Source: a virus (lineage: Duplodnaviria; Caudoviricetes). Taken from it: a stretch of DNA of 53,901 nt. The stretch lies in IMG/VR virus record IMGVR_UViG_3300020045_006418, positions 1 through 53,901 of that record. One strand, 5' to 3'. Below, piece by piece: positions 12,898 through 53,901 of the stretch; positions within the stretch are counted from its first letter, which is position 1, and every line of letters begins with the position of its first letter. Under the pieces are notes generated by a model. The model worked only from the letters and a program-made list of their open reading frames with translations. It was not told where the DNA came from and made no database searches. The translations under genes were made by a program, and so were the position numbers.

Positions 12898-13371
12898 ATG
12901 GATAAAGATTTAAAATATAGTAGAAGTTTAAAAGGGTTAGTAAGTATAATCTATAAAATACAACTTTTATCATCAAAAAGAAGAAAGCATCCTGAACCAA
13001 TTTACAGTAGGGATAGTTTTATACTGTGGTGTATGGAAAATAGTAAGTTTTTAAAACTTTACAAAGATTGGGAAGATTCAGGTTTTGATCCTAAAAAGAA
13101 ACCTAGTATTGATAGAAAAATAGATGCTTTACCCTATAGTTTTGATAATATAGATTGCTGTACTTGGGATGAAAATAGAACAAAAGGAAATAAAGCAAAT
13201 GCGATCGTAACCTCTAAAAAAGTTACTGCCTATTTACAGAATGAGGCTGTAGGTACCTATAATTCCATAAGCGAAGCAAGTACAGAGTTACATATTGAAA
13301 GGGTTAATATACGAGCTGTGTGTAATGGTAAAAGAAAAACTGCTGGAGGGCTAACTTTTTCTTTGGATTAA
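12898..13371 (+). CDS. HNH-like homing endonuclease with NUMOD1 domain
   Basis: PSIDRK..PYSFDN..TWDEN nuclease-like motif and YNSISEAS..IRAVCNGKRKTAGG; very AT-rich; interrupts the baseplate module. Confidence 0.7.
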   Translation: MDKDLKYSRSLKGLVSIIYKIQLLSSKRRKHPEPIYSRDSFILWCMENSKFLKLYKDWEDSGFDPKKKPSIDRKIDALPYSFDNIDCCTWDENRTKGNKANAIVTSKKVTAYLQNEAVGTYNSISEASTELHIERVNIRAVCNGKRKTAGGLTFSLD

Positions 13372-24905: not shown

Positions 24906-25373
24906 ATGAGGAAAATAAAGGGTTACGAGAATTATTCAATAACCAGAAAGGGTGAGATTATTAACACCAGAACTGGGAGAACATTGAAAAAGCATATATC
25001 AGAGAAGGGATATGCTTATATTTTCCTGAGCAGTAAAGGGAAATCTAAAAAATTTAGAGTTTGCAGATTGGTTTATTTAACATACAAGGGAGAAATATCC
25101 GGTGAGATAAATCACAAAGACAGAAATATTCTAAACGATTCCGTTACTAATTTGGAGGACATAACAGGCCGAGAGAATATTTTGCATTTCATGGAAAATA
25201 AAACCGGATTTACTGGAGTTGTAAAGAAGGGGGAACGGAAGTACAGAGCACGAATTACGGTCAAAGGTAAAATCTATGAGACCACGAGAACCACGGCAAT
25301 TAAAGCCTCCGAGTGGTATAAACAAAAAGCGGAGGAATTAGGTTTGAGTCTAAAGTATGCAAAGACAGCCTAA
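24906..25373 (+). CDS. NUMOD4-HNH homing endonuclease with AP2-like C-terminus
   Basis: IKGYENYSITRKG, INHKDRNILNDSVTNLE, TGFTGV..YRARI. Confidence 0.85.
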   Translation: MRKIKGYENYSITRKGEIINTRTGRTLKKHISEKGYAYIFLSSKGKSKKFRVCRLVYLTYKGEISGEINHKDRNILNDSVTNLEDITGRENILHFMENKTGFTGVVKKGERKYRARITVKGKIYETTRTTAIKASEWYKQKAEELGLSLKYAKTA

Positions 25374-37283: not shown

Positions 37284-39206
37284 ATGAGAGTAACAAATTA
37301 CACAAAAATAACATTAGAAGGATTTCAATCTGCAGGTAAACCCATATCGTTTCAATTGGATAATCTGGGATTGACTTTAATTAAAGGAGAAAATGGTGCT
37401 GGAAAGAGTACTGTTTTTAATGCAATTCCGTGGGTGGAGTTTGGTATTAATCCTAAAAAATCAGTAGCAACTTGGGAAGATTTAAGACCAGAAGGTTTTA
37501 GAGGAACCAGAGTAGTTATTGAAAGAAATGATGGCGAGTACGATTATATGATCGCTCGTCATTTGGCATTTAAAGGAACTACCAGAGGTTTAACCGGAGG
37601 TGACAAACTTATGATCTTTAAAAAGCCAATGAGTGAGCCTAAGTTCTTAGATTCGCATTTGGTCGGTTCTGCTCTTAATAAAGCAGAAATGCAGAAAATG
37701 ATTGTGGACCAAATAGGGATGGATAGTAAGACGTTTTCAAATTCAATTTTATTCGGCCAGAGAATGACGAGCTTTGTAGAAAGTGATGGAAAGGATAAAA
37801 GAGAATTGTTTGATGAGTTGTTTGATGTTGGTTTTGTAGATTCAGCTAAAGAAAAAGCAAAAGCCGAGGAGACTAAACTAAATACTGAAATTTCTAATCT
37901 TGAAACCAAATTGAATGGTTATGAGGATAAAAAAGAACTTTTGGAAGAAAAGCTGGAAGGTTACAGAACTCAGCTAAAAACTTTTGATGAGAATAAAAAG
38001 CAGCGAGTAAATACAGCCAAAAACAATCTAAAAGAGGCAGAGGATAAATTAAAAGCTGTAGAATCTGAAATTGTAACATACACAAAAGAAGTTGCGAAAT
38101 ATGATTTTAAAACCTTAGAAAAATTAGAGGCTGAGATTGAAACTATTAAAGCATCTGAGAAATTGGCAAAATCTACACTAGAAATAGATGAGACTGCCTT
38201 AAAGGATTTAACTACTGAGATTGAAAAATCGGTTAGAAAGCAAAAAGAGCTAGAAGTTCAATTGGAGCAAGTAAAAACAAATTGTCCTACTTGTGGGGAG
38301 AAGTTGAAAGCGGATAAAGTAGAGGGAGCTAAAAAAAGCATTAGGGAGCAGATACAGGCTGAGAAACTTATCCAAACAACACATGGAGCAAAGAAAACTG
38401 TAGCTGGGAACAAAGTGGCCGAATCTAAGAAAAAATATGATTCTATAGATAAGAATTTGAAAGTTAAGCAGGAGGAGGCAAGTAAATTTTCCGGAGATAA
38501 AACTAAATCTGCTACTGCACAAGCTAATTTGTCAAATAAAACAACTAGAAAAGAAGAACTTACTGCAGATATTTCGAAATTGAAAGAAACTCTGAAAACA
38601 GAGGAGGATGCTAAAAAACCAAAGTTGGATGTTGAAGGTGTGGGAAAAGAATTGCTGGATTTGAGTGATTCTATAGCTGGAGATGATGAACTTTTAGAAG
38701 TTAAAAAAACTAAATTGACCAAAGTAAAATGGTGGATTACAAAAGGTTTTGGGGCATCTGGATTAAAGGCTTTTGTTTTTAATGCAATGCTGGCACAACT
38801 AAATTCATTTTCGCATAAATACTCTGCGAGGTTAGGTTTCAGAGTAGAATTCTCTATAGATACAACGAAAGCAAGTAGACCATTCCAGACGCTTATTTAT
38901 AGCGGTGATAACGTTAGGGATTATCTGGATCTTTCCGGAGGACAAAAGCAACGTGTTGACGTTGTTATAGCCTTCGCAATGCACGATTTAATTAGTTTCA
39001 ACTCTAATATCAATATTTTGGTGATGGATGAGATTACAGAGGGATTAGATGGTGCTGGATTAGAGGCAGTGTATGATTTAATAAGAGAGAAATCTGAGGC
39101 TAAAGCTGTATATATAATAACGCACGAAACTATGATAGATTCTTATAATAGTAGGAGCGTTACTTTTGGACTAGATGAAGATAAAAATACTTATATTAAA
39201 TGGTAA
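37284..39206 (+). CDS. SbcC/Rad50-like ATPase
   Basis: GENGAGKST, Q-loop FGQ, coiled coils with CPTCG zinc hook, LSGGQ, VMDE, ITH. Confidence 0.92.
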   Translation: MRVTNYTKITLEGFQSAGKPISFQLDNLGLTLIKGENGAGKSTVFNAIPWVEFGINPKKSVATWEDLRPEGFRGTRVVIERNDGEYDYMIARHLAFKGTTRGLTGGDKLMIFKKPMSEPKFLDSHLVGSALNKAEMQKMIVDQIGMDSKTFSNSILFGQRMTSFVESDGKDKRELFDELFDVGFVDSAKEKAKAEETKLNTEISNLETKLNGYEDKKELLEEKLEGYRTQLKTFDENKKQRVNTAKNNLKEAEDKLKAVESEIVTYTKEVAKYDFKTLEKLEAEIETIKASEKLAKSTLEIDETALKDLTTEIEKSVRKQKELEVQLEQVKTNCPTCGEKLKADKVEGAKKSIREQIQAEKLIQTTHGAKKTVAGNKVAESKKKYDSIDKNLKVKQEEASKFSGDKTKSATAQANLSNKTTRKEELTADISKLKETLKTEEDAKKPKLDVEGVGKELLDLSDSIAGDDELLEVKKTKLTKVKWWITKGFGASGLKAFVFNAMLAQLNSFSHKYSARLGFRVEFSIDTTKASRPFQTLIYSGDNVRDYLDLSGGQKQRVDVVIAFAMHDLISFNSNINILVMDEITEGLDGAGLEAVYDLIREKSEAKAVYIITHETMIDSYNSRSVTFGLDEDKNTYIKW

Positions 39207-39940
39207 TATACAAAACTACTAATATTATAAATAATAAAATTTATATAGGCCAAACGTGCAGAAAGGAGAGGATAGATGAGTATTTTGGTTCTGGAGTAAA
39301 AATATCTTTAGCACTTAAGAAGTATGGTAAAGAGAGTTTTAAAAAAGAAATTATAGATACTGCAAATAGTTTAGATGAACTTAATGAGAAGGAGATTTAC
39401 TGGATAAATTTCTTTGAGAGCTACAAGGATTCCGTAGGTTATAACATAGAGCTAGGAGGAAAAAATAAAGTTGTTGCAGAAAGTACAAAACTGAAAATAT
39501 CTAAAGCTAAGATAGGAGAGGTCAAAAGTGCTTCTATGAGAGCTAAGAATAGTAAAAATAAAATGGGAAACAAGTACTGGGTAGGCAGAAAGCATAAAGA
39601 AAGTAGTAAAAAACTATTTTCTGAAATAGCTAAAAACAGAACTCAGATACAATGCCCTCACTGTTTTAAAGTTTGTGATAATTCCAATGGTAGAAGATGG
39701 CATTTTGATTATTGTAAAAAGGCACCAATAAACACGAGAAAATTTAGAGTACAAAAAGAGGCCAATAGAAAAGATCTTATACCAGTAGTACAACTAACTT
39801 TTTTAGGAGGAGAAATAGCAAGTTTCGTAAGCATTGCACAGGCTGTGAGAGTTACGAAAATAGATTCTAAAAGTATACGACTTTGTGCTTTAGGAGAATA
39901 TAAACAAGCTGGAGGATTCCTCTGGAAATTTAAAAATTAA
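39200..39940 (+). CDS. GIY-YIG homing endonuclease with NUMOD3/NUMOD1 domains
   Basis: VIYKTTNIINNKIYIGQT, YFGSG, EIYWI, GYN; CPHC; FVSIAQA..AGGFLWKF. Confidence 0.9.
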   Translation: MVIYKTTNIINNKIYIGQTCRKERIDEYFGSGVKISLALKKYGKESFKKEIIDTANSLDELNEKEIYWINFFESYKDSVGYNIELGGKNKVVAESTKLKISKAKIGEVKSASMRAKNSKNKMGNKYWVGRKHKESSKKLFSEIAKNRTQIQCPHCFKVCDNSNGRRWHFDYCKKAPINTRKFRVQKEANRKDLIPVVQLTFLGGEIASFVSIAQAVRVTKIDSKSIRLCALGEYKQAGGFLWKFKN

Positions 39941-43549: not shown

Positions 43550-45007
43550 ATGAGCACAGTATTAGATAGAGAGAAGCTATTAGCACTACCGGAAGTGGTA
43601 GATGTAGAGGTAGCCAAAAAGTTAGATTTTGCCACGGCACCAGATGTTTCCCAATTAACACCGGATCAGAAAGTTATTTTTGATGAGGTTATGTCATTGG
43701 TTAACGGTACTAAATCCGGAATCTATGTGATGAAGGGATACGCCGGAACCGGAAAGACATTCTTAACCTCCATAATCATGGAATACATTTTGAGTACAAC
43801 AAGCTTATCTGTGGCGGTAACTGCACCAACTAACAAAGCGGTGAAAGTAGCCAGAAAGCAGAGTAAATTTAGTAGTGAGGTACTAAATTTATGTTACAGT
43901 ACAATCCATTCAATGCTGGGGCTGAAAGAAAAAATTGATGGTTACGGGAGACAGACTTTCGTTAAGCTGAGAGATCAGGACGTGAGTGTGGATCAATATC
44001 AGGTAATTTTTATTGACGAGGCTTCGATGATGGCAGATGAGTTACTGGAGGAATTACTTAGATACCTGCCAATGTACAATTTAAAGCTTATATTTATTGG
44101 GGATCCGATTCAGATTCCGCCAGTAGGAGAGGATGATTTTGCATTGTTCAAAGAGGAGGGAATTTCTTTTCATGGTGCAGGAGTTGGAGAATTAACTCAG
44201 GTACTTAGACAGGCTGCAGATAATCCAATTATTGCACTTACTATGAAAATTAGAAATGCAATTGGCAGAAGTGAAATTATTCCAATTAGAAACGATTCGT
44301 ATGATGAGGAGACAATGGATGGTTTGTACTTTCTGGGACCTGATGATAAAACATTGTTCTACGATATTTTGAGAAAGTATTTCGTTAGCGATAATTTTAA
44401 AAAGGATGCTGATTTTATGAAGATTATTGCATGGACAAACAAAACCGTAGGTACATTCAATAAGATTGTGAGAAAAATGATCTACGGAGAAGTAGAAACA
44501 ATAATATGCATTGGAGAGAAATTGATTGCTAATAAACCAATCATAGATGATAATGATAAAAAGATCATTATTTTTAATAATAGTGATGAGTTTGAAGTAG
44601 TAGATTATTCTATAAGCTCCGGAACTTATAAAGGTGTTGATTTTAATTATTACAACACTAAAGTGTTCCATGAGGAGAAAGGTGAAAGAACTATTAAAAT
44701 CATACACGAATCATCTCAGGATGATTATGATTTGGTAATTGACCATCTGGTTAGTTTGGCAAAAGGAGCTAAACAGGGAAGTTATGAAGCAGCCGGAAAA
44801 TGGGCAGACTTTTTCGCTTTCCAGAATATATTTGCAGATGTGAACTATAACTATGCAATTACTTGTCACAAGGCACAGGGAAGTAGTTATGACAATGTTG
44901 TGGTTCTGGAATCAGATCTGGATGCAAATAGAAAGATTGTAGAGAGAAACCGAATTAAATATACGGCATTCACAAGGCCGAGAAAGAAACTATTTATTGT
45001 GAATTAA
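43550..45007 (+). CDS. Dda/RecD2-like SF1B helicase
   Basis: GYAGTGKT, APTNKA, IDEASM, GDPIQIPPV, YAITCHKAQGS, YTAFTR. Confidence 0.92.
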   Translation: MSTVLDREKLLALPEVVDVEVAKKLDFATAPDVSQLTPDQKVIFDEVMSLVNGTKSGIYVMKGYAGTGKTFLTSIIMEYILSTTSLSVAVTAPTNKAVKVARKQSKFSSEVLNLCYSTIHSMLGLKEKIDGYGRQTFVKLRDQDVSVDQYQVIFIDEASMMADELLEELLRYLPMYNLKLIFIGDPIQIPPVGEDDFALFKEEGISFHGAGVGELTQVLRQAADNPIIALTMKIRNAIGRSEIIPIRNDSYDEETMDGLYFLGPDDKTLFYDILRKYFVSDNFKKDADFMKIIAWTNKTVGTFNKIVRKMIYGEVETIICIGEKLIANKPIIDDNDKKIIIFNNSDEFEVVDYSISSGTYKGVDFNYYNTKVFHEEKGERTIKIIHESSQDDYDLVIDHLVSLAKGAKQGSYEAAGKWADFFAFQNIFADVNYNYAITCHKAQGSSYDNVVVLESDLDANRKIVERNRIKYTAFTRPRKKLFIVN

Positions 45008-45025
45008 TTTCTTATTGTGTGCTTT

Positions 45026-45054
45026 AAACCCCGCTTCCTAGAGTGGGGTTTTTT
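45026..45054 (+). terminator. rho-independent terminator
   Basis: AAACCCCGCT-tcctag-AGTGGGGTTTTTT. Confidence 0.8.
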
Positions 45055-45063
45055 ATTGAAATT

Positions 45064-45143
45064 AATTGTGATTTTATTTGTTTATAACCAAAATTATTTG
45101 TAGTTTTACTATGTAATAATTAATAACCTAATACCACAAAATC
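45064..45143 (+). promoter_or_regulatory. repeated promoter/operator/leader, copy 2
   Basis: Near-identical to 41836-41914. Confidence 0.8.
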
Positions 45144-45638
45144 ATGAGTTCATTTATTCCAAGTGCAAAGCACTTTAAAAGTATAGAAGCTACGTTTATT
45201 GATTTAAACTGGAATGACAATTTCTATTATCCATACGATTTGAAAGAAGATTTTCCAAATCTATACTCAAAAAATTCAGCGAAACAAATGCATAATTCGA
45301 TTAAAGATGTAGTAGGAGTTTTAGCTGAAATAACTGCATTGTGTGTATGCTTACAATACAGACATGAGCATGAAGGAACTTTAGACAAAGCTATAGAAGA
45401 TAATACTATTGCTGCAAAAGCAGAAGTAAAGGGTTATATTCTAACTAAAACAGAGCTTTATAAAGCGTTGAGTTGTGTTAAGTACCAAATTGAGTTAGAG
45501 CATCTGAAAGATTTGAGATCCTTAACTGAGAGAGAAGAAAAAGCTATGAAATTTCTGCGTGTTATGATTTTTCATCTTGCTGAGGATATTGTGTCCGGAA
45601 CAGCTTTGTACGATGCAGCAAGATGGGAAATATCATGA
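45144..45638 (+). CDS. hypothetical protein
   Basis: 164 aa; SCVKYQIE..YDAARWEI. Confidence 0.65.
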   Translation: MSSFIPSAKHFKSIEATFIDLNWNDNFYYPYDLKEDFPNLYSKNSAKQMHNSIKDVVGVLAEITALCVCLQYRHEHEGTLDKAIEDNTIAAKAEVKGYILTKTELYKALSCVKYQIELEHLKDLRSLTEREEKAMKFLRVMIFHLAEDIVSGTALYDAARWEIS

Positions 45639-45904
45639 GAGCAATAGATAAAATAATAACAAATGTGAGCACCAAATTTGGTGCTCCTCTTGGGAGACAT
45701 AGTATAGGCAGTAGACCTAAAATAGTTACGAGTGGAAGAAATAACCGAATAGCAAAATGTAATCAGGTAACAGTTTTTGATTGTAGAGTACCTTTAGATA
45801 GCGGAGGCTATGATAAAGGAGGAGTATACTGGGGTTTGGGTTCAGAATTGAGAGTTTCGTATACAAAAGATTTAACTTATGTAGAATTTTATAGAGTAGA
45901 GTAA
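45635..45904 (+). CDS. hypothetical protein
   Basis: FGAPLGR..LDSGGYDKGGVYWG. Confidence 0.65.
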   Translation: MRAIDKIITNVSTKFGAPLGRHSIGSRPKIVTSGRNNRIAKCNQVTVFDCRVPLDSGGYDKGGVYWGLGSELRVSYTKDLTYVEFYRVE

Positions 45905-45971
45905 TGAGGGCGGTACAATGGTTCCTACGGTAATCATTGAGATAAACAAGTAATTTTAAATTTTTATTATA

Positions 45972-46391
45972 ATGTCAGATATTGCAGAGAATCGTACGGC
46001 CTTAGACGTACTAAAAGAGAAGATGGTAGAAGGAATTGCACATTTCGTCTACATACGAAAAAGTGATGGAGTAGAGCGCGAGGCTTTCGGTACCATTAAC
46101 TCTGAGTTAATTCCAAAGTATGATCCGGAAAAAGTAGCATCTTTAATTGAGGCTGCAGAGTTTGGATCTAACTACCTTAGAAACGCAATTGATAGACCAA
46201 GTAATCTGACGGATGATCCGGATGGTTACAAAGGCGGTTTGTTATTGTTAGATAAGGCTAGAAAGCCGTTTATGCCTAAGGATGTGCCAGCGAAAAGTAA
46301 AGAACCCAATTTAAATTTGGTAACTTACTATGATCTGGAGAGTCGTGGATGGAGAAGCTTCGGAGTAGAGAACTTGGTTAGAGTTATCTAA
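45972..46391 (+). CDS. DUF2693 / WYL-like SH3-fold protein
   Basis: HFVYIRKSDGVEREAFGT and TYYDLESRGWRSF. Confidence 0.7.
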   Translation: MSDIAENRTALDVLKEKMVEGIAHFVYIRKSDGVEREAFGTINSELIPKYDPEKVASLIEAAEFGSNYLRNAIDRPSNLTDDPDGYKGGLLLLDKARKPFMPKDVPAKSKEPNLNLVTYYDLESRGWRSFGVENLVRVI

Positions 46392-46400
46392 AATTAATTG

Positions 46401-46428
46401 AAAAACCCCTTAAATTTAAGGGGTTTTT
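46401..46428 (+). terminator. rho-independent terminator
   Basis: AAAAACCCCTTA-aatt-TAAGGGGTTTTT. Confidence 0.85.
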
Positions 46429-46487
46429 ATTTGTTTATAACCAAAATATTTTGTAGTTTTACTATGTAATAATAAATAAAACAAATT
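46426..46487 (+). promoter_or_regulatory. repeated promoter/operator, copy 3
   Basis: TTTATTTGTTTATAACCAAAATATTTTGTAGTTTTAC. Confidence 0.8.
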
Positions 46488-47117
46488 ATGAAAATCCAGT
46501 CAGAAAGAAACGGTAGAGAGTACAGTAAAGGCGATTTAGAAGTAGCCTTAAAATTTTATAACATCGCGAGAAAGTTTGATTCTAGTGTTGCTCCATGCGA
46601 CTCAGTTGATGCTATTACTCCATTAACAATTGATTATTTTTTATCGATTGCAATGGATGCAGGTTTTGACCAGTACGGTGATAGAATGGTAAGAATGTTT
46701 GAACAACAGGTATTGGATACTGATTTACACGGAAAAGAACCAAAAGTATATACAAGTTACTACGGTAACGGAAAAATATTAAATTTGTATGGAGTGGTTA
46801 AAGTTAGAATTGCACAATTTGCACCAAGATTCGAGAAAGCTCATGCAAGCTGTACGTGTCTGGCACCATCAAAGAATCTTTTAGCAGCGAGTAAATCAGG
46901 ATCACTAGGAGATGGAGAGTTTACTGCACAGTATGAGAAAGAGATTTCCGGATTAGATGCAGCAACAGTTTATAAAGATCTTTTGGAATTGGGGAGCGGA
47001 AGAGACGTAGCTATTCTATGTTATGAAAAACCCCCAGATTTTTGTCACCGTCATATCACTGCAAACTGGTTTAAAGATGAGTTAGGAATTGAGTTAATAG
47101 AATTTCCACATAAGTAA
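46488..47117 (+). CDS. DUF488-like protein with N-terminal extension
   Basis: VYTSYY, LAPSKNLL, ILCYEKPPDFCHRH. Confidence 0.7.
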   Translation: MKIQSERNGREYSKGDLEVALKFYNIARKFDSSVAPCDSVDAITPLTIDYFLSIAMDAGFDQYGDRMVRMFEQQVLDTDLHGKEPKVYTSYYGNGKILNLYGVVKVRIAQFAPRFEKAHASCTCLAPSKNLLAASKSGSLGDGEFTAQYEKEISGLDAATVYKDLLELGSGRDVAILCYEKPPDFCHRHITANWFKDELGIELIEFPHK

Positions 47118-47134
47118 AATTTTGTTGCTAAAAA

Positions 47135-47167
47135 TTGTTTAGAAGTAATATTTTTTACTTATATTTG
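47135..47167 (+). promoter_or_regulatory. Bacteroidota-type promoter of the modification/packaging operon
   Basis: TATATTTG 47160-47167 with TTG upstream. Confidence 0.6.
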
Positions 47168-47267
47168 CTACATAGCACATGCGACTAAGGTGTAATTAAA
47201 CTGCATACTGAACATTCCAGTTCGGAGGGCCTGAGTAAAATGGGAAGTCGCTCAAAATCAACGGTTT

Positions 47268-48602
47268 ATGAGTTTTATAGGAAGCGTGCCCCCAGAGGCG
47301 CGCATCGTTATTAAAGAGATACTGGATAAAATTCATCCAAGTATTCCAATTTATATAGGCTGTTCAGGAAATTTCGTGATAGATAGAATCTGTTCGAGTA
47401 TGGGAAGAACGACTTATAGTAACGATGTTGCTCTTTACAGTAAGGCGATAGCTGATATAGCGATGGGCGTTGAAACAGAATTAGAGGTTACAGAACACAA
47501 GTACCGAACTATTTTTGGTGAGTGGGAGGAATCTAAATACAAAAAATTGGCTATGATTATGTACATAGCCAAAATTTCTGAGTTCGAGGATTGTGGTAAT
47601 GACTTCAAAGCGATGCAGTACCACAACATGATTGAGAACAATAAGGAGTTTTATCTGAACACGAAAGAAAAACTAGAAAGACAGAAGTCATGTGAATTTA
47701 ATATCGATGGCTTCTTTTTTGGTGATTTCAGAGAGCATTTATCCGGATTGAAGGAAAAAGGAGTAGGAATGCTTTTTGCACCAACTTACACCGGAGGATA
47801 CGAAAAAATGTATAAAAGGGTTGAGGAAGTTTTCAACTACGAAAGAGCATCTTACCAGATGTTTGATACAAAAGAGTGTGGCACTATCTATGAGGATATG
47901 TTAAAAGCTTCACCTATGGTAATACATACAGATCAGGATTTGGTAAATCTACAAAAGTATCTGGTAGCCAGAACGATTTTGGGCAATGGAAAGAAGGATA
48001 TTCTTACTTACTCGAGCGTAGAGAGTTTCGATAAACACATGTTCTTAGATTCGAGAAAATACACTCCGATCAAAAGAACTTATGAAATAATGCCGGAAGA
48101 TTTCGAATTTACCGAAAAGACCCAGATCAGAATGATAGAATGTAAGACTTCGGTAGTGAATCACTACAAACATGTTTACATGGGAGCTAAAGTAGATTAC
48201 TCAGAAGGTGGAGATTTTGGAATTTTATTCTTTGCCGATGGTTTACTGTTTGGTTTAGCCTCAATAAGCAAGTTCTTAGGCTGCAAAAGCAAAAGAGATA
48301 TATTTCTACAGAGTGATTTTTGCGTGCCTCACTACACTAAACTGTCTAAATTAACAATAATGTTGCTTTTATCACTGGACGTACAGGATCTGATTCTGGA
48401 TAAATTTGCGTACATGTATGAAGGATTGCAAACCTCAGTATACACAGACAAAGCTGTGAGCATGAAATACAGAGGAGTATTTACATTAGAAGAGAAAGAC
48501 ACAAGAGCTAATAAATTAACATACCGAGGAAGTTTTAAAAACCTATCGGTAAAATCATTATACCGAGAATGGTTACAGAAGGAAAAAATATTGAAGAAAT
48601 AA
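47268..48602 (+). CDS. putative DNA modification enzyme: Dam-like MTase fold fused to a Mom-like GNAT domain
   Basis: FIGS, IYIGCSGNF, YSNDV, GDF, FAPTY (in place of DPPY); C-terminal FADGLLFG..SDF..LSKL..TSVYT..SMKYRG. Confidence 0.55.
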   Translation: MSFIGSVPPEARIVIKEILDKIHPSIPIYIGCSGNFVIDRICSSMGRTTYSNDVALYSKAIADIAMGVETELEVTEHKYRTIFGEWEESKYKKLAMIMYIAKISEFEDCGNDFKAMQYHNMIENNKEFYLNTKEKLERQKSCEFNIDGFFFGDFREHLSGLKEKGVGMLFAPTYTGGYEKMYKRVEEVFNYERASYQMFDTKECGTIYEDMLKASPMVIHTDQDLVNLQKYLVARTILGNGKKDILTYSSVESFDKHMFLDSRKYTPIKRTYEIMPEDFEFTEKTQIRMIECKTSVVNHYKHVYMGAKVDYSEGGDFGILFFADGLLFGLASISKFLGCKSKRDIFLQSDFCVPHYTKLSKLTIMLLLSLDVQDLILDKFAYMYEGLQTSVYTDKAVSMKYRGVFTLEEKDTRANKLTYRGSFKNLSVKSLYREWLQKEKILKK

Positions 48603-49342
48603 GATTAGAGCTGGAGAGAATGTCTCTTATCACAGCTCCATATAAATTTGCTGCAGTAACGGAACAGGATATTATCTTTTTGGAGAGAAATGCCCGTTAC
48701 ATGACCAAAGACCAGCAAGCCAAATTAACAAAGAACATTGAAACGGACGGGTTTTTATCTCAGTTACCACTTGGTATGAAGAGAGCAGAGGATGGTAAGT
48801 ATATTATCCTATCTGGAAACCACAGATGTAAATCAGCCATAAAGGCCGGACTTCCCTATATAATTATTCAATACATTGATGAGGTAGATAAGGAGAAAGC
48901 TCTGGCTTTACAGTTAAGCCACAATTCTATAGTAGGTCAGGACGATATGACGGTTTTAAAGAACCTGTACATGGAGATCGAATCGTTAGAGGCCAAAGAG
49001 TTTTCAGGAATCAACGAAAAAGAAATAATGCAGTATGATAGTTTGGATTTACCGGCAATAGCAGAAGGTGATTTTAAACTGCATACAATCTCATTTGTTT
49101 TCTCAGATCTGCAGAATGTAAAACTACAGCAGATGGAAGAAGCCCTACGAGTAATGGGAGAAGAAATGCACGAAGATCAGGTACAAAGGTTCATTGGATT
49201 ACCATACAGAAAATTCGTACAAATAATGTCTGACGTAAAAGACATTAAGGGAGTAAAGAATAACACGATTGGATTTGTAAAGATGTTGCAGATCTGTCAG
49301 GACTACATAGATAATTACAAAGAAGAACATAAAACGGAGTAA
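48569..49342 (+). CDS. ParB/Srx N-terminal domain protein
   Basis: NARYM, NIETDGFLSQLP, YIILSGNHR, LSHNSIVG. Confidence 0.85.
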   Translation: MVTEGKNIEEIRLELERMSLITAPYKFAAVTEQDIIFLERNARYMTKDQQAKLTKNIETDGFLSQLPLGMKRAEDGKYIILSGNHRCKSAIKAGLPYIIIQYIDEVDKEKALALQLSHNSIVGQDDMTVLKNLYMEIESLEAKEFSGINEKEIMQYDSLDLPAIAEGDFKLHTISFVFSDLQNVKLQQMEEALRVMGEEMHEDQVQRFIGLPYRKFVQIMSDVKDIKGVKNNTIGFVKMLQICQDYIDNYKEEHKTE

Positions 49343-49344
49343 TT

Positions 49345-49944
49345 ATGGCAAAAGATACCGAATTAGCCAGACAAAAAACATATTCTCAATCAGGAATGGT
49401 TAAGATTGCCAGAAAGATTTGTACAGAATATAAAACAGGTTTGTACTCGTTGGAGAGTTGTTGCGATAATGCCGGAGTACCTTATAGAACGTGGAAAGAA
49501 TGGTGGGCGAGATACAATGCAGACCCCACAAATGATAAGATAAAAGCGCATTGTCTTGCAGAAGTTGCAGATTTATGGAAGGAGTCACAGGAGAGCAGAG
49601 ACTTAATTGCCCGTGGAAACCTGAAAGAATTGTGCGAGACTAACATGGAGAGGCTGATAAAAGGCTGGGAGTACAAGGAGACAAAAACCGATGTTAAGAC
49701 GGTGAAGGATTCAGACGGTCAGGAGATCTTAGTACCAGTAGGCCAGACGATTACGACCAAGCAGGTGCTACCTAATGCAGGAATGATACAGTTTGCCTTA
49801 AAGTCGGTTGCTCCTCAATTGTATGGAGAGCGTTCTACAAACCTGAATGTGAATGTCGATGCAGGTGATGCGTTCAAAGGCAGAACGTTGGCGGAGATAG
49901 ATGCAGAAATTGAAGCACTCGAAAATGGCAGAGATAAACGATAG
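49345..49944 (+). CDS. terminase small subunit
   Basis: HTH-like N-terminus; GWEYKETKT..TTKQVLPNAGMIQFALK; directly upstream of TerL. Confidence 0.75.
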   Translation: MAKDTELARQKTYSQSGMVKIARKICTEYKTGLYSLESCCDNAGVPYRTWKEWWARYNADPTNDKIKAHCLAEVADLWKESQESRDLIARGNLKELCETNMERLIKGWEYKETKTDVKTVKDSDGQEILVPVGQTITTKQVLPNAGMIQFALKSVAPQLYGERSTNLNVNVDAGDAFKGRTLAEIDAEIEALENGRDKR

Positions 49945-51568
49945 ATTATATCAGTTAAAGCTGGAAAAGCTGGAGACTTTAAGATGGGAGCGGTACCGAG
50001 AGGATCCGCTCTTTTGGCTTGAACACAGGTTCGGTGAGGATCCGAAAGCGTTCCAGTGGGATCTATGGGGACCAGAATATGACAATCACGTGTGGGACGG
50101 AGACAAAAATCCTCTGGCAGAAGCTTGGAAGAAATTAGCACAAGGAGAGCATGTAGGCGTAGAGGCAGGAACCGGAACCGCGAAAACATTCTGGCTGTCC
50201 AGAGTGACGTTCTGGTTTGCTGATTGTTATCCGGATTCGCTGATCGTTACCTCAGCACCAAAGCAGGACCAGCTTAAACTACACTTGTGGGCAGAGATTA
50301 CAAAAGCATTCAGTAAGTTTAAAAAGATCAGGCCTAAAGCTGAATTGTATAAGCTACGTATGGTAGTGGAGGCGCAGGAGAGCGATACACAAAAGAAACA
50401 GAATGCGATTGATAACGTAGCCGATGCGGATGATTTAAGTACATCATGGCAGGCTGTAGGTTTCGTAGCCGGTACGGATGCAGGAGCAGAGTCAGCAACC
50501 AAAGCGCAGGGTTTCCACAGAAAGGATATGTTAATCATTCTGGAAGAGTGTGCAGGGATGCCGATGCCGATCATGACAGCATTCCAGAATACAAGTACCG
50601 GAGGAAACAACGTGATACTGGCAGTAGGGAATCCGGATAGTGAGCTGGATGTATTGCATCAGTTCTGTATGCAGGAGGATGTATTTGCTTTCCGTGTTTC
50701 GGCTATGGATTTCCCGAATGTGGTATTGAATGAGGAGGTGATCGCTGGAGCCGTTACGGTGAAGTCAATTGAGAGGAGACGTAAAAAGTATGGCGAGAAA
50801 TCCGGATTGTTTCAGTCACGTGTACATGGGAAGTCGCCTGCAGAGAGTACGGACTCGCTTATTAAGAGAAGCTGGATTGAGGAGGCTTTACTCAATGAGG
50901 TTGTATACGATGGAAGTTATAACGCGGTTGGAGTCGATGTGGCGAATTCCGAAACAGGGGATAAGGCTGCAACTGCATGGGGCAGGGGTAACGTACTGAC
51001 GGAAGTGTTTGAGTTTAAATGTCCTAATGCAACGCACCTCGCATACAATGTGATGTATGACGATAATGAATTATTTGAGAAAGGATATGAGAATTATAAG
51101 TTACCGACTGCAAAAAGCTATGATATGCTTTCGCAGTGTATTGGAGTAGATGCCGTTGGTGTAGGTGTTGCCACGGTTAATGCATTTGTTGATAATGGAT
51201 ATGAGTGTATAGCGCTGCAGGGAGGACAATTGAAAGAAGTTATACCTGTAGATCCACAGGGAGAGCCTATGTACACGTTCTCCGGATTAAGGTCACAGAT
51301 GTACTGGGAACTGAGAGAAGACCTTAGAAACGGCCATTTACAGTTCGATATAGATAATCCGGCATTGTGCCAGAGGATCATGGTAGAGCTGACAACACCG
51401 AGGTTTAAGGTATCGTCTGCTAATGTGCAGGTAGAAAAGAAGGAAGATATTAAAAAGAGGCTTGGTGGAAAGTCTCCGAATATAGCCGATGCAATTGTAT
51501 ACTGGAATTGGGCACGAAAAGGTCATTATGTGAGAGGTGGAATTGCGGCAGTGAGTGCAGGCCAATAA
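49925..51568 (+). CDS. terminase large subunit
   Basis: AGTGTAKT, LIILEE, VGNP, VGVDVA, GVDAVGVG, KSPNIADA. Confidence 0.9.
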   Translation: MAEINDRLYQLKLEKLETLRWERYREDPLFWLEHRFGEDPKAFQWDLWGPEYDNHVWDGDKNPLAEAWKKLAQGEHVGVEAGTGTAKTFWLSRVTFWFADCYPDSLIVTSAPKQDQLKLHLWAEITKAFSKFKKIRPKAELYKLRMVVEAQESDTQKKQNAIDNVADADDLSTSWQAVGFVAGTDAGAESATKAQGFHRKDMLIILEECAGMPMPIMTAFQNTSTGGNNVILAVGNPDSELDVLHQFCMQEDVFAFRVSAMDFPNVVLNEEVIAGAVTVKSIERRRKKYGEKSGLFQSRVHGKSPAESTDSLIKRSWIEEALLNEVVYDGSYNAVGVDVANSETGDKAATAWGRGNVLTEVFEFKCPNATHLAYNVMYDDNELFEKGYENYKLPTAKSYDMLSQCIGVDAVGVGVATVNAFVDNGYECIALQGGQLKEVIPVDPQGEPMYTFSGLRSQMYWELREDLRNGHLQFDIDNPALCQRIMVELTTPRFKVSSANVQVEKKEDIKKRLGGKSPNIADAIVYWNWARKGHYVRGGIAAVSAGQ

Positions 51569-51633
51569 GTTTTCCTGAATTTTAGGTCAAAGTATGCAGA
51601 AAAGTGTTATCTTTGACATAAAACTAGGAAATT

Positions 51634-51960
51634 ATGGCAATAAACACAGTGTGGGAGGTTACGGATTTAGAGACGAACACCCGAAAATTATGGAAGTCAA
51701 TGGACTTCCTTTTAGAGATGGTTGATAAAACCGGTAAACAAGTAGTAACTTCTAAGAACTTTAATGAGAGACTTAGAACGAAACCCGAAGATGTAAACTT
51801 TCTGATATTCAAAGGGAGATGGAAAGTGACTACTGAGTATATCTGGGGAGTAGTAGAAGGGCAGAGAAAGCTTCACCCTATAAGCGGAGCCAAAAGTCAG
51901 AAGGCTCATGAGAAGTTAAAGAAGTCAGGAGTGTTTAGTATGGGATCTACTTCGATTTAA
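51634..51960 (+). CDS. hypothetical protein
   Basis: 108 aa ORF preceded by TATCTTTG. Confidence 0.6.
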   Translation: MAINTVWEVTDLETNTRKLWKSMDFLLEMVDKTGKQVVTSKNFNERLRTKPEDVNFLIFKGRWKVTTEYIWGVVEGQRKLHPISGAKSQKAHEKLKKSGVFSMGSTSI

Positions 51961-51976
51961 TTAATGTAGTAAAACG

Positions 51977-52014
51977 AATGCCTGAGATAAATAGCACTAT
52001 CTCAGGCATTTTTT
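51977..52014 (+). terminator. rho-independent terminator
   Basis: AATGCCTGAGATA-aatagcac-TATCTCAGGCATT followed by a T-tract. Confidence 0.85.
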
Positions 52015-52020
52015 ATGCTT

Positions 52021-52093
52021 TTTTATTTGTTTATAACCAAAATATTTTGTAGTTTTACATAGTAATTAAAAGTTAACCTAATACCACGAGATT
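52021..52093 (+). promoter_or_regulatory. repeated promoter/operator/leader, copy 4
   Basis: TTTATTTGTTTATAACCAAAATATTTTGTAGTTTTACATAGTAAT...TAACCTAATACCAC. Confidence 0.8.
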
Positions 52094-52447
52094 ATGAAAA
52101 CTAAAGTAGATTTTTTAAACGGCTTACATGCATCTGCAAAATCAGAAAACTTTGAAAATAAAGTATTGAAATTGTTGCCGAATGGCGTAACACAGATTTA
52201 TCTAAATACCTGTACTATGGAATGGTTGGGTAGAGGATCATATAATTATAAGTTAGATCTGGAGATTAACGGAAGTGATGTTACTTTAAGAGAACGTACT
52301 ACGGATGCACCTAGTTATGATGCTTATCAGAGTATGGAGTACGGAAGTAGAGAGTATGGCAATTGGATAAAAAATACTGTATTGATGCTTTTAGAAAATA
52401 ATACAGATTTAGTGATTGAATTGATAACTGAAAATGTAGAGCTATGA
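52094..52447 (+). CDS. hypothetical protein
   Basis: 117 aa ORF behind the repeated promoter. Confidence 0.65.
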   Translation: MKTKVDFLNGLHASAKSENFENKVLKLLPNGVTQIYLNTCTMEWLGRGSYNYKLDLEINGSDVTLRERTTDAPSYDAYQSMEYGSREYGNWIKNTVLMLLENNTDLVIELITENVEL

Positions 52448-52818
52448 ACAAAGAGAATTTATTAAAGATGGCTAACCACATAGAGAAGGTGGAGCAAGCA
52501 CATTTTGATATGGTTTGTTACAGAACAAACGAGACTAAAAATTGTAATTCAGTGGCCTGCGTTGTAGGCCACTGTGTAGATTTAGTGCCTGAGGAATCTC
52601 TGCCTAGAGAATATAACGGAAACATAGCCTACGGTCCGTGGAGTGTAGATTTTACTGGTATTAGTGGGAATGCGTGGAATTGGTGTTTTGGATCATATTG
52701 GGCAGGGATAGATAACACTCCATTAGGAGCAGCCAAAAGAATAAGATACCTTGTAGAGAATGGACTTCCTGAGAATTGGGAGTATCAAATGGTAGGTAAA
52801 GCACCTTTAATCTATTAA
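52444..52818 (+). CDS. hypothetical protein
   Basis: 124 aa; FDM..CNSVACVVGH. Confidence 0.65.
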   Translation: MNKENLLKMANHIEKVEQAHFDMVCYRTNETKNCNSVACVVGHCVDLVPEESLPREYNGNIAYGPWSVDFTGISGNAWNWCFGSYWAGIDNTPLGAAKRIRYLVENGLPENWEYQMVGKAPLIY

Positions 52819-52820
52819 TT

Positions 52821-53021
52821 ATGAAACCAGAAACACAACAAAGGTTGGAGGCATTAGTGAAAATGTCCCCAACCTCAGTACTAAAGATGAAACTGGTAGA
52901 GCTAATGTCGGCAGATATTAGACTGGCTCCTCTTTTCATAGCCACACAGGAAGAACTGGAAACCAGAATAGGTGAGGCTGCAGTAGATGCAATATTGAAC
53001 GCTAACCGTAATTTGAACTAA
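52821..53021 (+). CDS. hypothetical protein
   Basis: 66 aa ORF in the operon. Confidence 0.5.
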   Translation: MKPETQQRLEALVKMSPTSVLKMKLVELMSADIRLAPLFIATQEELETRIGEAAVDAILNANRNLN

Positions 53022-53022
53022 G

Positions 53023-53274
53023 ATGAGGCAAAATTTTATAGGAAAGAAAACGGTTATTGAATACGTTAGAAATAAATCTAAAGACGACGGGGAATTTACT
53101 ATTATTAGAAATTCATTAAATGGAATACCAAACTATGTTTGTTCTTATACAGGGACTCAACTAGTAAGTGTAGAAGATATGCACAGAGTTTTGAATGATA
53201 GCTATCTTTTGAAAATGATGATAAAGATAAAAATTTACCATCTGGATGATATGGACTATAAAAAATTATTGTAA
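53023..53274 (+). CDS. hypothetical protein
   Basis: 83 aa ORF in the operon. Confidence 0.5.
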   Translation: MRQNFIGKKTVIEYVRNKSKDDGEFTIIRNSLNGIPNYVCSYTGTQLVSVEDMHRVLNDSYLLKMMIKIKIYHLDDMDYKKLL

Positions 53275-53901
53275 TGAGTAAACAGGATAACATAGTTTGT
53301 ACGTTCAGTGGAGGCAGAAGTTCTGCTTTCATGGCTATTTGGTTAAAGTTGAGATACCCATTAAAGAACATTATTTTCTTGTTTGCTAATACTGGAAAAG
53401 AGAAAGAAGAAACTTTAGTGTTTGTAGATAAGTGTGACAAATTTTGGAAATTGGGCATAGTTTGGTTAGAAGCAGTAGTCCATCCGGAAAAAGGAGTAGG
53501 AACCACTTATGTAGTTACGGATTTTGGTAATGCTTGTAGAGATGGTAGAATATTCGAAGACGTAATTAAAAAGTTTGGATTGCCGTCTAAACTCTATAGA
53601 CACTGTACTAGAGAGATGAAAGAGCGTACTATTAAAAAGTATGCAGACGATCATTTTGGTAAAAGCAACTGGATTAAAGCTTTGGGTATGAGAGCAGACG
53701 AGCCTCATAGAACAAAACCGATCAGGAGCTATAAATGTAATCATTGTGGAACTTGGCACCTGACTAGCACCTTCAATACGATGAGTGTTATTATCAGGGA
53801 CCAGTTAGATGAGATTGATAAACTCAATGCAGAGATAGCAACCCACAAAAAGAGAATAGGTCAATTGATCTCCCAAGCAAGTAGAGCAGTTTCCATCTTC
53901 C
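53274..53901 (+). CDS. PAPS-reductase-family (PP-loop) protein, runs off the window (absent from the ORF track)
   Basis: MSKQDNIVCTFSGGRSS..FANTGKE..HCTREMK..LGMRADE; frame open to the window end. Confidence 0.75.
   Translation, partial: MSKQDNIVCTFSGGRSSAFMAIWLKLRYPLKNIIFLFANTGKEKEETLVFVDKCDKFWKLGIVWLEAVVHPEKGVGTTYVVTDFGNACRDGRIFEDVIKKFGLPSKLYRHCTREMKERTIKKYADDHFGKSNWIKALGMRADEPHRTKPIRSYKCNHCGTWHLTSTFNTMSVIIRDQLDEIDKLNAEIATHKKRIGQLISQASRAVSIF

Follow-up and report, generated by a model that had tools for sequence, protein, structure and literature searches.

A terminase-linked phage cassette of a Dam-like/GNAT fusion enzyme, ParB-like and DUF488 partners and a glycine-type tRNA-like element: a candidate Mom-like DNA modification system

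The window analysed here is the whole of IMG/VR virus record IMGVR_UViG_3300020045_006418 (Duplodnaviria; Caudoviricetes), a linear stretch of 53,901 nucleotides (nt) that is estimated to be 65% complete. All of its genes lie on the + strand. Structural genes of myovirus type and a replication module are encoded, and the cassette that is the subject of this study lies towards the right end. The cassette comprises a gene for a DUF488-family protein, a transfer RNA (tRNA)-like element of glycine type, the gene for a 444-amino-acid (aa) enzyme in which a domain resembling the DNA adenine methylase Dam is fused to a GNAT domain, and the gene for a ParB-like partner; terminase genes follow. An earlier reading of the window from its letters alone, here called the first-pass annotation, had proposed that a two-domain enzyme makes a non-methyl or multi-step base modification, delivered during packaging with the help of ParB. 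The features of the cassette and of the terminase genes, in positions of the window, are these:

46488-47117, + strand: gene for a DUF488-family protein, 209 aa (open reading frame (ORF) and Pfam)
47181-47253, + strand: tRNA-Gly-like element (covariance model R1, 24.2 bits, E = 0.003)
47268-48602, + strand: gene for the Dam-like/GNAT fusion enzyme, 444 aa (Pfam PF22555 and PF22559; phrog_7858, E = 2.4e-103)
47274-48026, + strand: Dam-like domain of the enzyme, aa 3-253, predicted to have the Rossmann methyltransferase fold, with aa 56-139 forming a Dam-type helical insert
47355-47369, + strand: motif I of the enzyme, IGCSG, aa 30-34
47778-47789, + strand: motif IV equivalent of the enzyme, APTY, aa 171-174
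48120-48587, + strand: GNAT-phage-like domain of the enzyme, aa 285-440 (Pfam PF22559, E = 2e-26)
48569-49342, + strand: gene for a ParB/Srx-like partner, 257 aa, overlapping the enzyme gene by 34 nt
49345-49944, + strand: gene for a 199-aa protein, a candidate small terminase subunit by position only
49901-51568, + strand: gene for a 555-aa protein, a predicted large terminase subunit from a divergent family (profile-level match)

ORF calling bore out the run of overlapping or abutting genes, with a DUF488-like gene directly 5', that had been described from the letters. For the last ORF the end at 51568 held, whereas its start, given as 49925, lies within a longer form that begins at 49901 (555 aa).

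The 444-aa protein matches two Pfam families above their gathering scores, first PF22555 (DAM-like-phage1) over aa 3-253 (E = 1.3e-40, 139.9 bits against a cut-off of 27) and then PF22559 (GNAT-phage-like) over aa 285-440 (93.2 bits, also against 27). There were 270 homologues of near-equal length, the nearest 58% identical, and the 120 of these that were listed all had the two-domain make-up, with similar length and domain order. By sequence, the window protein is a plain member of the PF22555 plus PF22559 architecture. The GNAT-domain profile matched 1086 clusters (50% identity), 739 with E <= 1e-10; the best 150 of the 1086, which were those listed, were all in-family, so that a distant link to the Mom protein of phage Mu cannot be read from that search. 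Database labels for the family are hypothetical or 'methyltransferase'. Other than PF22555, none of the standard Dam-family Pfam models matched the enzyme at E <= 0.01, an hhalign comparison with Escherichia coli Dam aligned motif I alone (E = 0.4), and a sequence search of the PDB with the enzyme returned no matches.

The N-terminal domain retains the order of a Dam-type methylase with altered motifs. In Dam and the other alpha-class N6-adenine methylases, motif IV is (D/N/S)PP(Y/F/W), and in N6 and N4 methylases its D, N or S holds the target amino group. Both alterations that the first-pass annotation had pointed out, IGCSG for motif I and APTY for DPPY, are where it placed them, and they are not peculiar to the window: among 30 family members (alignment A1), GCSGN (motif I), ND (motif II) and PTY are invariant in all 30, and motif IV opens with A or P in every one, never with D, N or S, and has T in third place. 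This suggests that the ordinary chemistry of N6-methyl transfer has been altered. The family motifs GCSGN, SNDV.LYS, [A/P]PTY.GGYEK and SMKYRG (A1, 30 sequences; A6, 35 sequences) are all present in the window protein. The 35 members of alignment A6 are much more distant, and in the GNAT domain they keep G329, D350, K361, L362, T389, the run S398-M-K-Y-R402 and Y419 invariant.

Both folds that the two-domain proposal called for, a Rossmann methyltransferase and a GNAT, were found in an AlphaFold model of the enzyme, made with a 30-sequence alignment (predicted local distance difference test score, pLDDT, 85.9), in agreement with the two Pfam matches. The best structural matches of aa 1-253 (VIA-align) are DNA adenine methylases, with E. 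coli Dam first (2g1p_B, Z = 13.8, root-mean-square deviation (rmsd) 5.2, 196 residues aligned), followed by DpnM (Z = 11.9) and T4 Dam (Z = 11.3). For aa 280-425, compared with GNATs, the first match is Mom of phage Mu (8bv8, Z = 10.0-10.4, 137-138 residues aligned, rmsd 3.3-3.5). The GNAT domain is smaller than Mom, at about 160 aa against 241, with 137 residues aligned to a 222-residue chain, and the secondary structure of the model leaves no room for the helix-turn-helix (HTH)-like insertion of Mom, which is absent. Glycines of the pyrophosphate loop are typical of GNATs that use coenzyme A (CoA). In the family alignments, the stretch from the conserved SDF strand to the LSKL helix shows no evident glycines of this kind, a point of likeness to Mom.

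The GNAT family is not confined to this fusion. It is found on its own in viral clusters of the ESM Atlas (175 aa) and in viral fusions of 692-801 aa that combine Amidoligase_2, DAM-like-phage2 and GNAT-phage-like domains (phrog_2443; an ESM Atlas cluster). These fusions, compared from two listings, resemble the window enzyme in having the GNAT family beside a Dam-like domain, and differ from it in an extra ATP-dependent amide ligase domain and in the Dam-like subfamily; their make-up would fit chemistry of an amino-acid type. The next structural neighbours of the GNAT family were DruA-family models, with template modelling (TM) scores of 0.80 and 0.67.

The relatives of the cassette were collected as 80 IMG/VR loci and 80 loci from species-representative genomes, 160 in all. 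Many of the IMG/VR loci are near-copies of one another, and the 160 enzymes form 32 clusters at 50% identity, the largest with 84 members. The link to tRNA had its starting point in Mycobacterium phage Taptic, where an annotated tRNA-Gly(UCC) overlaps the start of a distant homologue of the enzyme gene and is the only tRNA found in 57.5 of 61 kilobases (kb). In the 160 loci, ARAGORN identified 74 tRNA-Gly or Gly-like genes in the cassette interior, and outside the cassette only four tRNAs (two Arg, one Lys and one Glu), none of them Gly. The only tRNAs found in the cassettes of the 80 species-genome loci were of glycine type. All 25 distinct tRNA sequences start with GCG and end with CGC-U, and across lineages their identity is only 42-70%. 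The 18 that were aligned share an invariant G1 C2 G3, C35 C36 and C70 G71 C72 U73, which we take to be the identity set of bacterial glycyl-tRNA synthetase. The anticodon loops, on the other hand, are unfit for decoding in 15 of the 25 sequences, having a 6- or 8-nt loop, A33, or an A34/ACC anticodon.

A covariance model (R1) was built from these 18 cassette-linked tRNAs and run on 99 loci (960,755 bases). It returned 41 matches, made up of 12 that were already known, four ordinary tRNAs far from the cassette and 25 new elements; each of these 25 has the GCG...CGC-U form and neighbours either the enzyme gene or the DUF488 gene. Standard finders miss many of the cassette elements, 25 of the 37 cassette-type matches being seen by the model only. 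Many of these model-only elements are just 62-70 nt long, their D arms being reduced and their anticodon loops unusual. A T arm can still be made out in most of the elements, and the acceptor stem in all. One of the elements without annotation lies in Gordonia phage Clawz, where it separates gp28 from gp29, the homologue of the enzyme (44 bits; L083:4820-4891, about 13046-13117 of the record). An Rfam tRNA search of the Taptic and Clawz records found nothing, missing even the annotated tRNA. As a negative control, R1 was run on 260,686 bases (44 loci with Mu-like Mom and 57.5 kb of Taptic), where its sole match was the Taptic tRNA itself, and at E <= 0.05 it gave no match in 249,495 unrelated bases (the same 44 loci and 46.3 kb of Taptic).

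Taken together, a glycine-type tRNA or tRNA-like element is present in the cassette at 97 of the 160 loci (64 of 80 from IMG/VR and 33 of 80 from species genomes), and by a hand tally the loci that bear one fall in 17 of the 32 enzyme clusters. The phyla represented include Bacteroidota, Chlorobiota, Planctomycetota, Chloroflexota, Bacillota, Actinomycetota and Pseudomonadota, and at least eight gains or losses are needed to explain the tRNA label given by ARAGORN on a quick tree built from 62 representatives. This linkage gives independent support to the idea of a non-methyl chemistry. The tRNA-like gene also shows a particular attachment to DUF488. Where the DUF488 gene is kilobases away from the enzyme gene (L108, L119, L123, L128 and L137), the tRNA-like gene lies 3-219 nt from DUF488, which hints that DUF488 acts on or with the RNA. 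The range of 3-219 nt from DUF488, and not a place next to the enzyme gene, also applies to L126 and L131, where DUF488 is far off or inverted.

In the window itself, R1 was run with its filters off over all 53,901 bases, and the best match was the element at 47181-47253 on the + strand; the only other match had E = 2.7. ARAGORN found no tRNA in the window and Rfam gave no tRNA match at E <= 10 in 44500-53901. The element sits within the 150-nt gap between the DUF488 gene and the enzyme gene, syntenic with those of relatives. That gap had been taken for a promoter region and no more; it encodes a tRNA-Gly-like RNA. The match to R1 is full-length, with a glycine-type acceptor (G1:C72, C2:G71, G3:C70, U73) and C35 C36, and the minimum free energy fold is a cloverleaf. 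There is a D arm and a 6-base-pair (bp) anticodon stem closing a 6-nt loop, AUUCCA, which contains UCC and is common to a large clade of relatives; CCA is not encoded. A canonical 7-nt anticodon loop and T arm are missing, the latter being reduced to a 3-bp stem with a 9-nt loop. Judged on these sequence features, the window element is very probably homologous to the cassette tRNAs of the relatives.

The order DUF488, Dam-like/GNAT enzyme and ParB-like protein recurs in the 160 loci, across many phyla. The ParB-like gene is found in 149 of them (78 of 80 from IMG/VR and 71 of 80 from species genomes), usually overlapping the enzyme gene, and the DUF488 gene in 135 (76 and 59). The ParB named in the first-pass annotation is supported, as a ParB-like partner, by this retention; its profile matches are to phrog_7405 (E = 1.1e-54) and to six PHROGs with ParB names (E = 5.7e-11 to 3.3e-4). 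Matches to ParB_N (PF02195; E = 0.002, 18.6 bits) and TIGR00180 (E = 2.5e-4, 20.8 bits) fall below the respective cut-offs of 26.3 and 58.45 bits. Invariant motifs of the ParB-like family include GNHR (aa 83-86) and SHN (aa 117-119) (alignment A5).

The DUF488 protein matches PF22751 (DUF488-N3a; E = 2.8e-11, 44.2 bits against a cut-off of 27) and PF04343 (E = 9.4e-10, 39.6 bits against 22.2). Its conserved domain spans aa 87-209, and an N-terminal extension of about 85 aa is missing in most homologues. The invariant residues are T89, P127, C178, E180, C186-H187-R188 and E205 (alignment A3). DUF488 is said to belong to the rhodanese-phosphatase superfamily. With a model of pLDDT 94.4, VIA-align gave weak matches to rhodanese- and phosphatase-like folds (best 3g5j_B, Z = 6.4; dual-specificity phosphatases, Z = 4-5), Foldseek gave nothing at E <= 0.001 and a PDB sequence search gave no matches; the rhodanese/phosphatase matches were judged too weak for the fold to be named after them.

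Terminase genes usually follow the cassette, and they belong to several unrelated families. A homologue of the window-type terminase lies 3' of the cassette in 65 of the 80 IMG/VR loci. Among the loci from species genomes, 51 had a long ORF (330 aa or more) whose start lay no further than 3 kb 3' of the ParB-like gene, and 47 of these were scanned, leaving out L097, L140 and L147 (apparent repeats, to judge by ORF coordinates identical or almost identical to those of loci already included) and L100 (which ran off its contig). By Pfam, this next long ORF is a large terminase in 35 cases (of Terminase_6, Terminase_3, TerL or GpA type), a small terminase in two, a portal protein in three and an AAA protein in one; six had no match, two of which fit the hidden Markov model (HMM) of the window-type terminase. 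The proposed placement of the cassette next to terminase genes is therefore seen in both sets of loci. For the window, the terminase assignment stands for the large subunit, on profile evidence, while the small subunit is named by position only. By sequence, the 555-aa protein is a large terminase at profile level only: a 10-sequence profile (A2) found the large terminase 8dkr in the PDB (E = 5.7e-10, positions 288-493) and Sf6 gp2 (E = 2.5e-5), the single sequence reached only E = 0.022 in the PDB and E = 3.4e-13 for phrog_5902, and Pfam alone gave nothing. No family matched the 199-aa protein above threshold, Phage_term_sma coming out at E = 0.061. In two relatives the large terminase gene 3' of the cassette, L096:7077-8936 and L129:3210-5849, is interrupted, by an intein in L096 and by a LAGLIDADG homing-endonuclease/intein-like insert in L129.

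Mom of phage Mu (PF25680; PDB 8bv8) is a GNAT that transfers glycine from Gly-tRNA-Gly to the N6 of adenine in double-stranded DNA, giving N6-carbamoylmethyl-adenine, and its HTH-like insertion (residues ∼175-209) is essential for activity (PMC13219725). The cassette enzyme is like Mom in being a phage enzyme with a GNAT fold for which Mom is the best solved match, and in its link, here, to a glycine-type tRNA. It is unlike Mom in lacking sequence homology to it and the HTH-like insertion, in being fused to a Dam-derived domain, and in having a fixed ParB-like and a usual DUF488 partner and often a tRNA of its own, whereas 44 Mu-like Mom loci have no tRNA. A second precedent, and the only experimentally tested one for a ParB-like helper, is the phage thymine dioxygenase 5mYOX176, which needs its ParB-like neighbour ParB176, and only on double-stranded DNA (PMC13229309). 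As in the cassette, a DNA-modifying enzyme is paired there with a short ParB-like gene that has no obvious DNA-binding domain and is often near terminase genes; the enzyme is an iron/2-oxoglutarate (Fe/2OG) dioxygenase instead of a Dam-like/GNAT protein. ParB-terminase ('ParB-Tls') loci with adenine methylases have been predicted to modify DNA during packaging (PMC4738411, citing Iyer et al. 2013, from Aravind's group). These share the order of enzyme, ParB and terminase; the loci described here differ in an enzyme whose methylase motif IV has gone and to which a GNAT is joined, and in a module that includes DUF488 and a glycine tRNA. For the RNA, there is a parallel in staphylococci, whose Fem-type peptidyl transferases are fed by non-proteinogenic tRNA-Gly. 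That tRNA is likewise a dedicated glycine tRNA, normally charged and poor in translation, and the acceptor is peptidoglycan, not DNA. Further precedents of isoacceptors with non-ribosomal roles are cited in the Mom paper (PMC13219725).

From the observations described above, namely both folds, the altered motifs, the conserved gene order and the linked tRNAs, we infer a donor, a target base, roles for the ParB-like and DUF488 proteins and an anti-restriction purpose. The cassette is probably a system for Mom-like transfer of glycyl from Gly-tRNA to DNA adenine, in which the Dam-derived domain would act as reader and base-flipper and the ParB-like protein as activator; this reading draws on sequence, on the structural model and on analogy, since Mom, itself a GNAT, uses Gly-tRNA-Gly on double-stranded DNA and a ParB-like neighbour activates a phage thymine dioxygenase. 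The cassette would carry out a post-replicative hypermodification of DNA, working like Mom and built differently. The C-terminal GNAT domain would take glycine from charged tRNA-Gly and place it on a DNA base, most likely on the N6 of adenine. The N-terminal Dam derivative, which keeps the fold and the DNA-reading insert and has lost the catalytic D of DPPY, would recognise the site and flip out the adenine, and so would do the job of Mom's own HTH-like insertion. The ParB-like protein would be an obligatory helper or activator on double-stranded DNA. Glycine could be supplied by the host Gly-tRNA or by the cassette's own glycine-type tRNA-like RNA, which appears to keep what glycyl-tRNA synthetase needs and to have shed what the ribosome needs. 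DUF488 would be the fourth conserved part, probably handling that tRNA. Being transcribed together with the terminase genes, the cassette would place its mark late in infection, at the stage of packaging.

A bolder version can be put forward only tentatively, by analogy and from the sequences. In it, phages and prophages of a large part of the bacterial tree would possess, in this cassette, a self-contained system of four parts that aminoacylates DNA with the help of tRNA: a private carrier RNA reduced to the identity elements for the synthetase, a DUF488 Cys/His enzyme that relays or guards the glycyl group, a dead Dam domain that serves the Mom-like GNAT, and a ParB-like clamp that opens double-stranded DNA during packaging.

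Several observations weigh against the glycyl-transfer reading. The lead of Mom in the structural comparison is less than one Z unit, and with the next GNATs, which are ordinary acetyltransferases, at 9.7 and 9.5, it amounts to a tie. There is also no link by sequence: the Mom profile PF25680, on which Mu Mom itself scores 253 bits as a control, does not match the C-terminal domain even at E <= 10, and hhalign of the enzyme family against Mu Mom found no significant similarity (E = 0.66). The Mom-like GNAT of the first-pass annotation is thus confirmed as a GNAT with Mom as its best solved match, but not as closer to Mom than to ordinary GNATs. The invariance of motifs I and II suggests that a cofactor, possibly S-adenosylmethionine (SAM), may still be bound, and methylation of something is conceivable. 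As for the RNA, 63 of the 160 loci are without a tRNA-like element at the thresholds used, and because R1 was built from Gly-type sequences, its low-scoring matches lean to that type. ARAGORN also found 15 Phe and 10 Cys tRNAs in the cassette interior, all at IMG/VR loci of the 84-member cluster; these 25 at the same spot in one clade imply that the spot is also a general tRNA island there. The absence of tRNA from the Mu-like Mom loci (0 of 44, a close set of 85-100% identity) means that linkage to tRNA-Gly is not a validated predictor of the use of Gly-tRNA. Finally, the window element has an ordinary folding energy (z = -1.15), an eroded T arm and a score of 24.2 bits only, so that it is perhaps a remnant in decay. 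A donor might also come from the host or from the third of the genome that the record lacks.

Three other explanations were weighed. The first is that the enzyme is an ordinary packaging-linked methylase, making N6-methyladenine or another methyl mark, with an accessory GNAT that uses acetyl-CoA on a protein or small molecule, and that the tRNA-Gly serves genes rich in GGA and GGG. GGA is indeed the commonest glycine codon of the window (594 of 1184), GCSGN and ND are invariant, a member of the family is entered in one database as 'putative antirestriction adenine methyltransferase', and ParB-terminase loci with true methylases have been described (PMC4738411). We nevertheless regard it as rather unlikely. 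It does not account for a motif IV that begins with A or P in all 30 members or for the lack of matches to standard Dam models at E <= 0.01, and a supply of codons fits poorly with linked tRNAs of which 15 of 25 have decoding-unfit loops, together with many model-only elements that are stripped-down mini tRNAs. Codon supply would also leave unexplained a tRNA in 17 of 32 enzyme clusters that is of glycine type only throughout the 80 species-genome loci.

The second explanation turns the tRNA from donor into target: the enzyme would acetylate its charged end, as TacT and AtaT do, or methylate a tRNA adenine, and the linked genes would provide its substrates, or decoys or replacements for them. 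There are known GNATs with aminoacyl-tRNA as their substrate, TacT acting on Gly-tRNA-Gly (PMC13219725); the Rossmann N6-adenine methyltransferase fold of the enzyme also matches RNA methyltransferases, with Z = 10-12, and the tie of the tRNA-like gene to DUF488 even with the enzyme gene kilobases off gives that gene a life of its own. This explanation is nonetheless improbable. The best folds for the N-terminal domain are the DNA adenine methylases Dam, DpnM and T4 Dam, with a Dam-type insert, the fixed partners of the enzyme (the ParB-like protein and the terminases) handle DNA, and a toxin-like activity would have no obvious use beside the packaging genes of a lytic phage.

The third, that the Dam-like domain is itself the transferase, with its SAM pocket re-used for the glycyl-adenosine end, its PTY pocket for the flipped adenine and the GNAT left with a second step or with binding of the tRNA, would make sense of invariant cofactor-pocket motifs beside a replaced catalytic D and of the joint presence of both Pfam families in all 120 homologues listed, but we hold it to be very improbable, as it is pure inference, we know of no precedent for it, the GNAT invariants D350, K361 and SMKYR (398-402) look like an active site, and the GNAT-phage-like domain also stands alone in the 175-aa viral clusters.

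CCGGA, the motif first put forward as a candidate target, did not find support. The enrichment of this word is real, with 193 sites in the window against 34.8 ± 6.1 in dinucleotide shuffles, but it is not common to the relatives: in most of the 70 de-duplicated loci listed, observed over expected is near 1. In the window, 74 of the 111 + strand sites are NCC-GGA codon pairs and 33 are CCG-GAN, and GGA comes next after 30 of the 85 TCC codons. For TCCGGA the count is 58, against 16.0 ± 3.1 under synonymous-codon shuffling, and given the count of CCGGA the palindrome is not further enriched (116 against 125). With the relatives near 1 and the window excess lying in codon pairs, CCGGA as a modification target was set aside as unsupported.

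Other words are rare in the window. After synonymous-codon shuffling, CCAGG (0 against 12.8), CCTGG (0 against 15.2), TGATCA (0 against 12.9), CTGAAG (0 against 18.9) and CTTCAG (0 against 9.3) are absent where they would be expected, GATATC is found 3 times against 13.4, and CCWGG has a Markov z of -10.6. By these counts, the phage seems to avoid restriction-type sites, besides presumably modifying its DNA. For GATC the window shows no depletion (372 against 455.9). The word is strongly depleted in many relatives (many of L002-L080; L074, L094, L017), for instance in L074 (0 against 78.9), L094 (10 against 67.3) and L002 (28 against 92.4), which speaks against the idea that the Dam-like domain protects GATC sites there.

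The cassette appears to be bounded on both sides, by the following flanking features:

45972-46391, + strand: gene for a WYL_2 (Sm-like SH3) protein directly 5' of the cassette, with a strong terminator-like hairpin between
46401-46428, + strand: terminator-like hairpin, 12-bp stem then T run, 3' of the WYL_2 gene
51634-51960, + strand: small ORF 5' of the downstream terminator-like hairpin
51976-52011, + strand: terminator-like hairpin, 14-bp stem then T run, 3' of ORF 51634-51960

Going by sequence and position, the hairpin at 46401-46428 is the likely upstream boundary of the transcription unit and that at 51976-52011 the likely downstream one. The claim that the genes lie behind one promoter was not borne out: sigma-70-like sites number 14 against 17.0 by chance, and a sigma-70-type operon promoter was dropped as a candidate on that count. 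A Bacteroidota-type TTTG...TAnnTTTG pattern occurs 9 times in the window against 3.3 expected, and not at all in the gap between the DUF488 and enzyme genes. Shortly 3' of the terminase, a PAPS-reductase-like (PP-loop) gene at 53274-53900 (PF01507, E = 1.1e-7; phrog_424, E = 3.2e-34) runs off the end of the window and, by sequence, may be a further nucleic-acid-modification gene. Elsewhere, an HNH endonuclease (24906-25373) and a GIY-YIG-type homing endonuclease (39200-39940) are inserted among replication and recombination genes.

The type of locus has already been predicted in print and the family itself is curated in Pfam; the link to glycine tRNA is the new point. Neither a description of the PF22555/PF22559 family nor of this link was found in the literature searched, which did not extend to the supplements of the Mom and ParB papers, where homologues may be listed. 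So far, tRNA-dependent modification of DNA has been known from one enzyme family, Mom (PMC13219725). The GNAT family considered here has at least 739 clusters at 50% identity (E <= 1e-10) and is found in prophages of many phyla; its enzyme genes are called hypothetical or 'methyltransferase', and the tRNA-like genes are missed by standard finders. If glycyl transfer is indeed its function, chemistry of the Mom type would be far commoner than Mom, and the ParB-like helper would be a general device that gives base-modifying enzymes access to duplex DNA. The mini tRNAs would then be a new class of non-translational tRNA, the decoding-defective glycine tRNAs being natural tRNAs kept purely as carriers of an activated amino acid. 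Should the family do what Mom does with its own, different scaffold, adenine marks of the glycyl type would be widespread as a counter-defence of phages.

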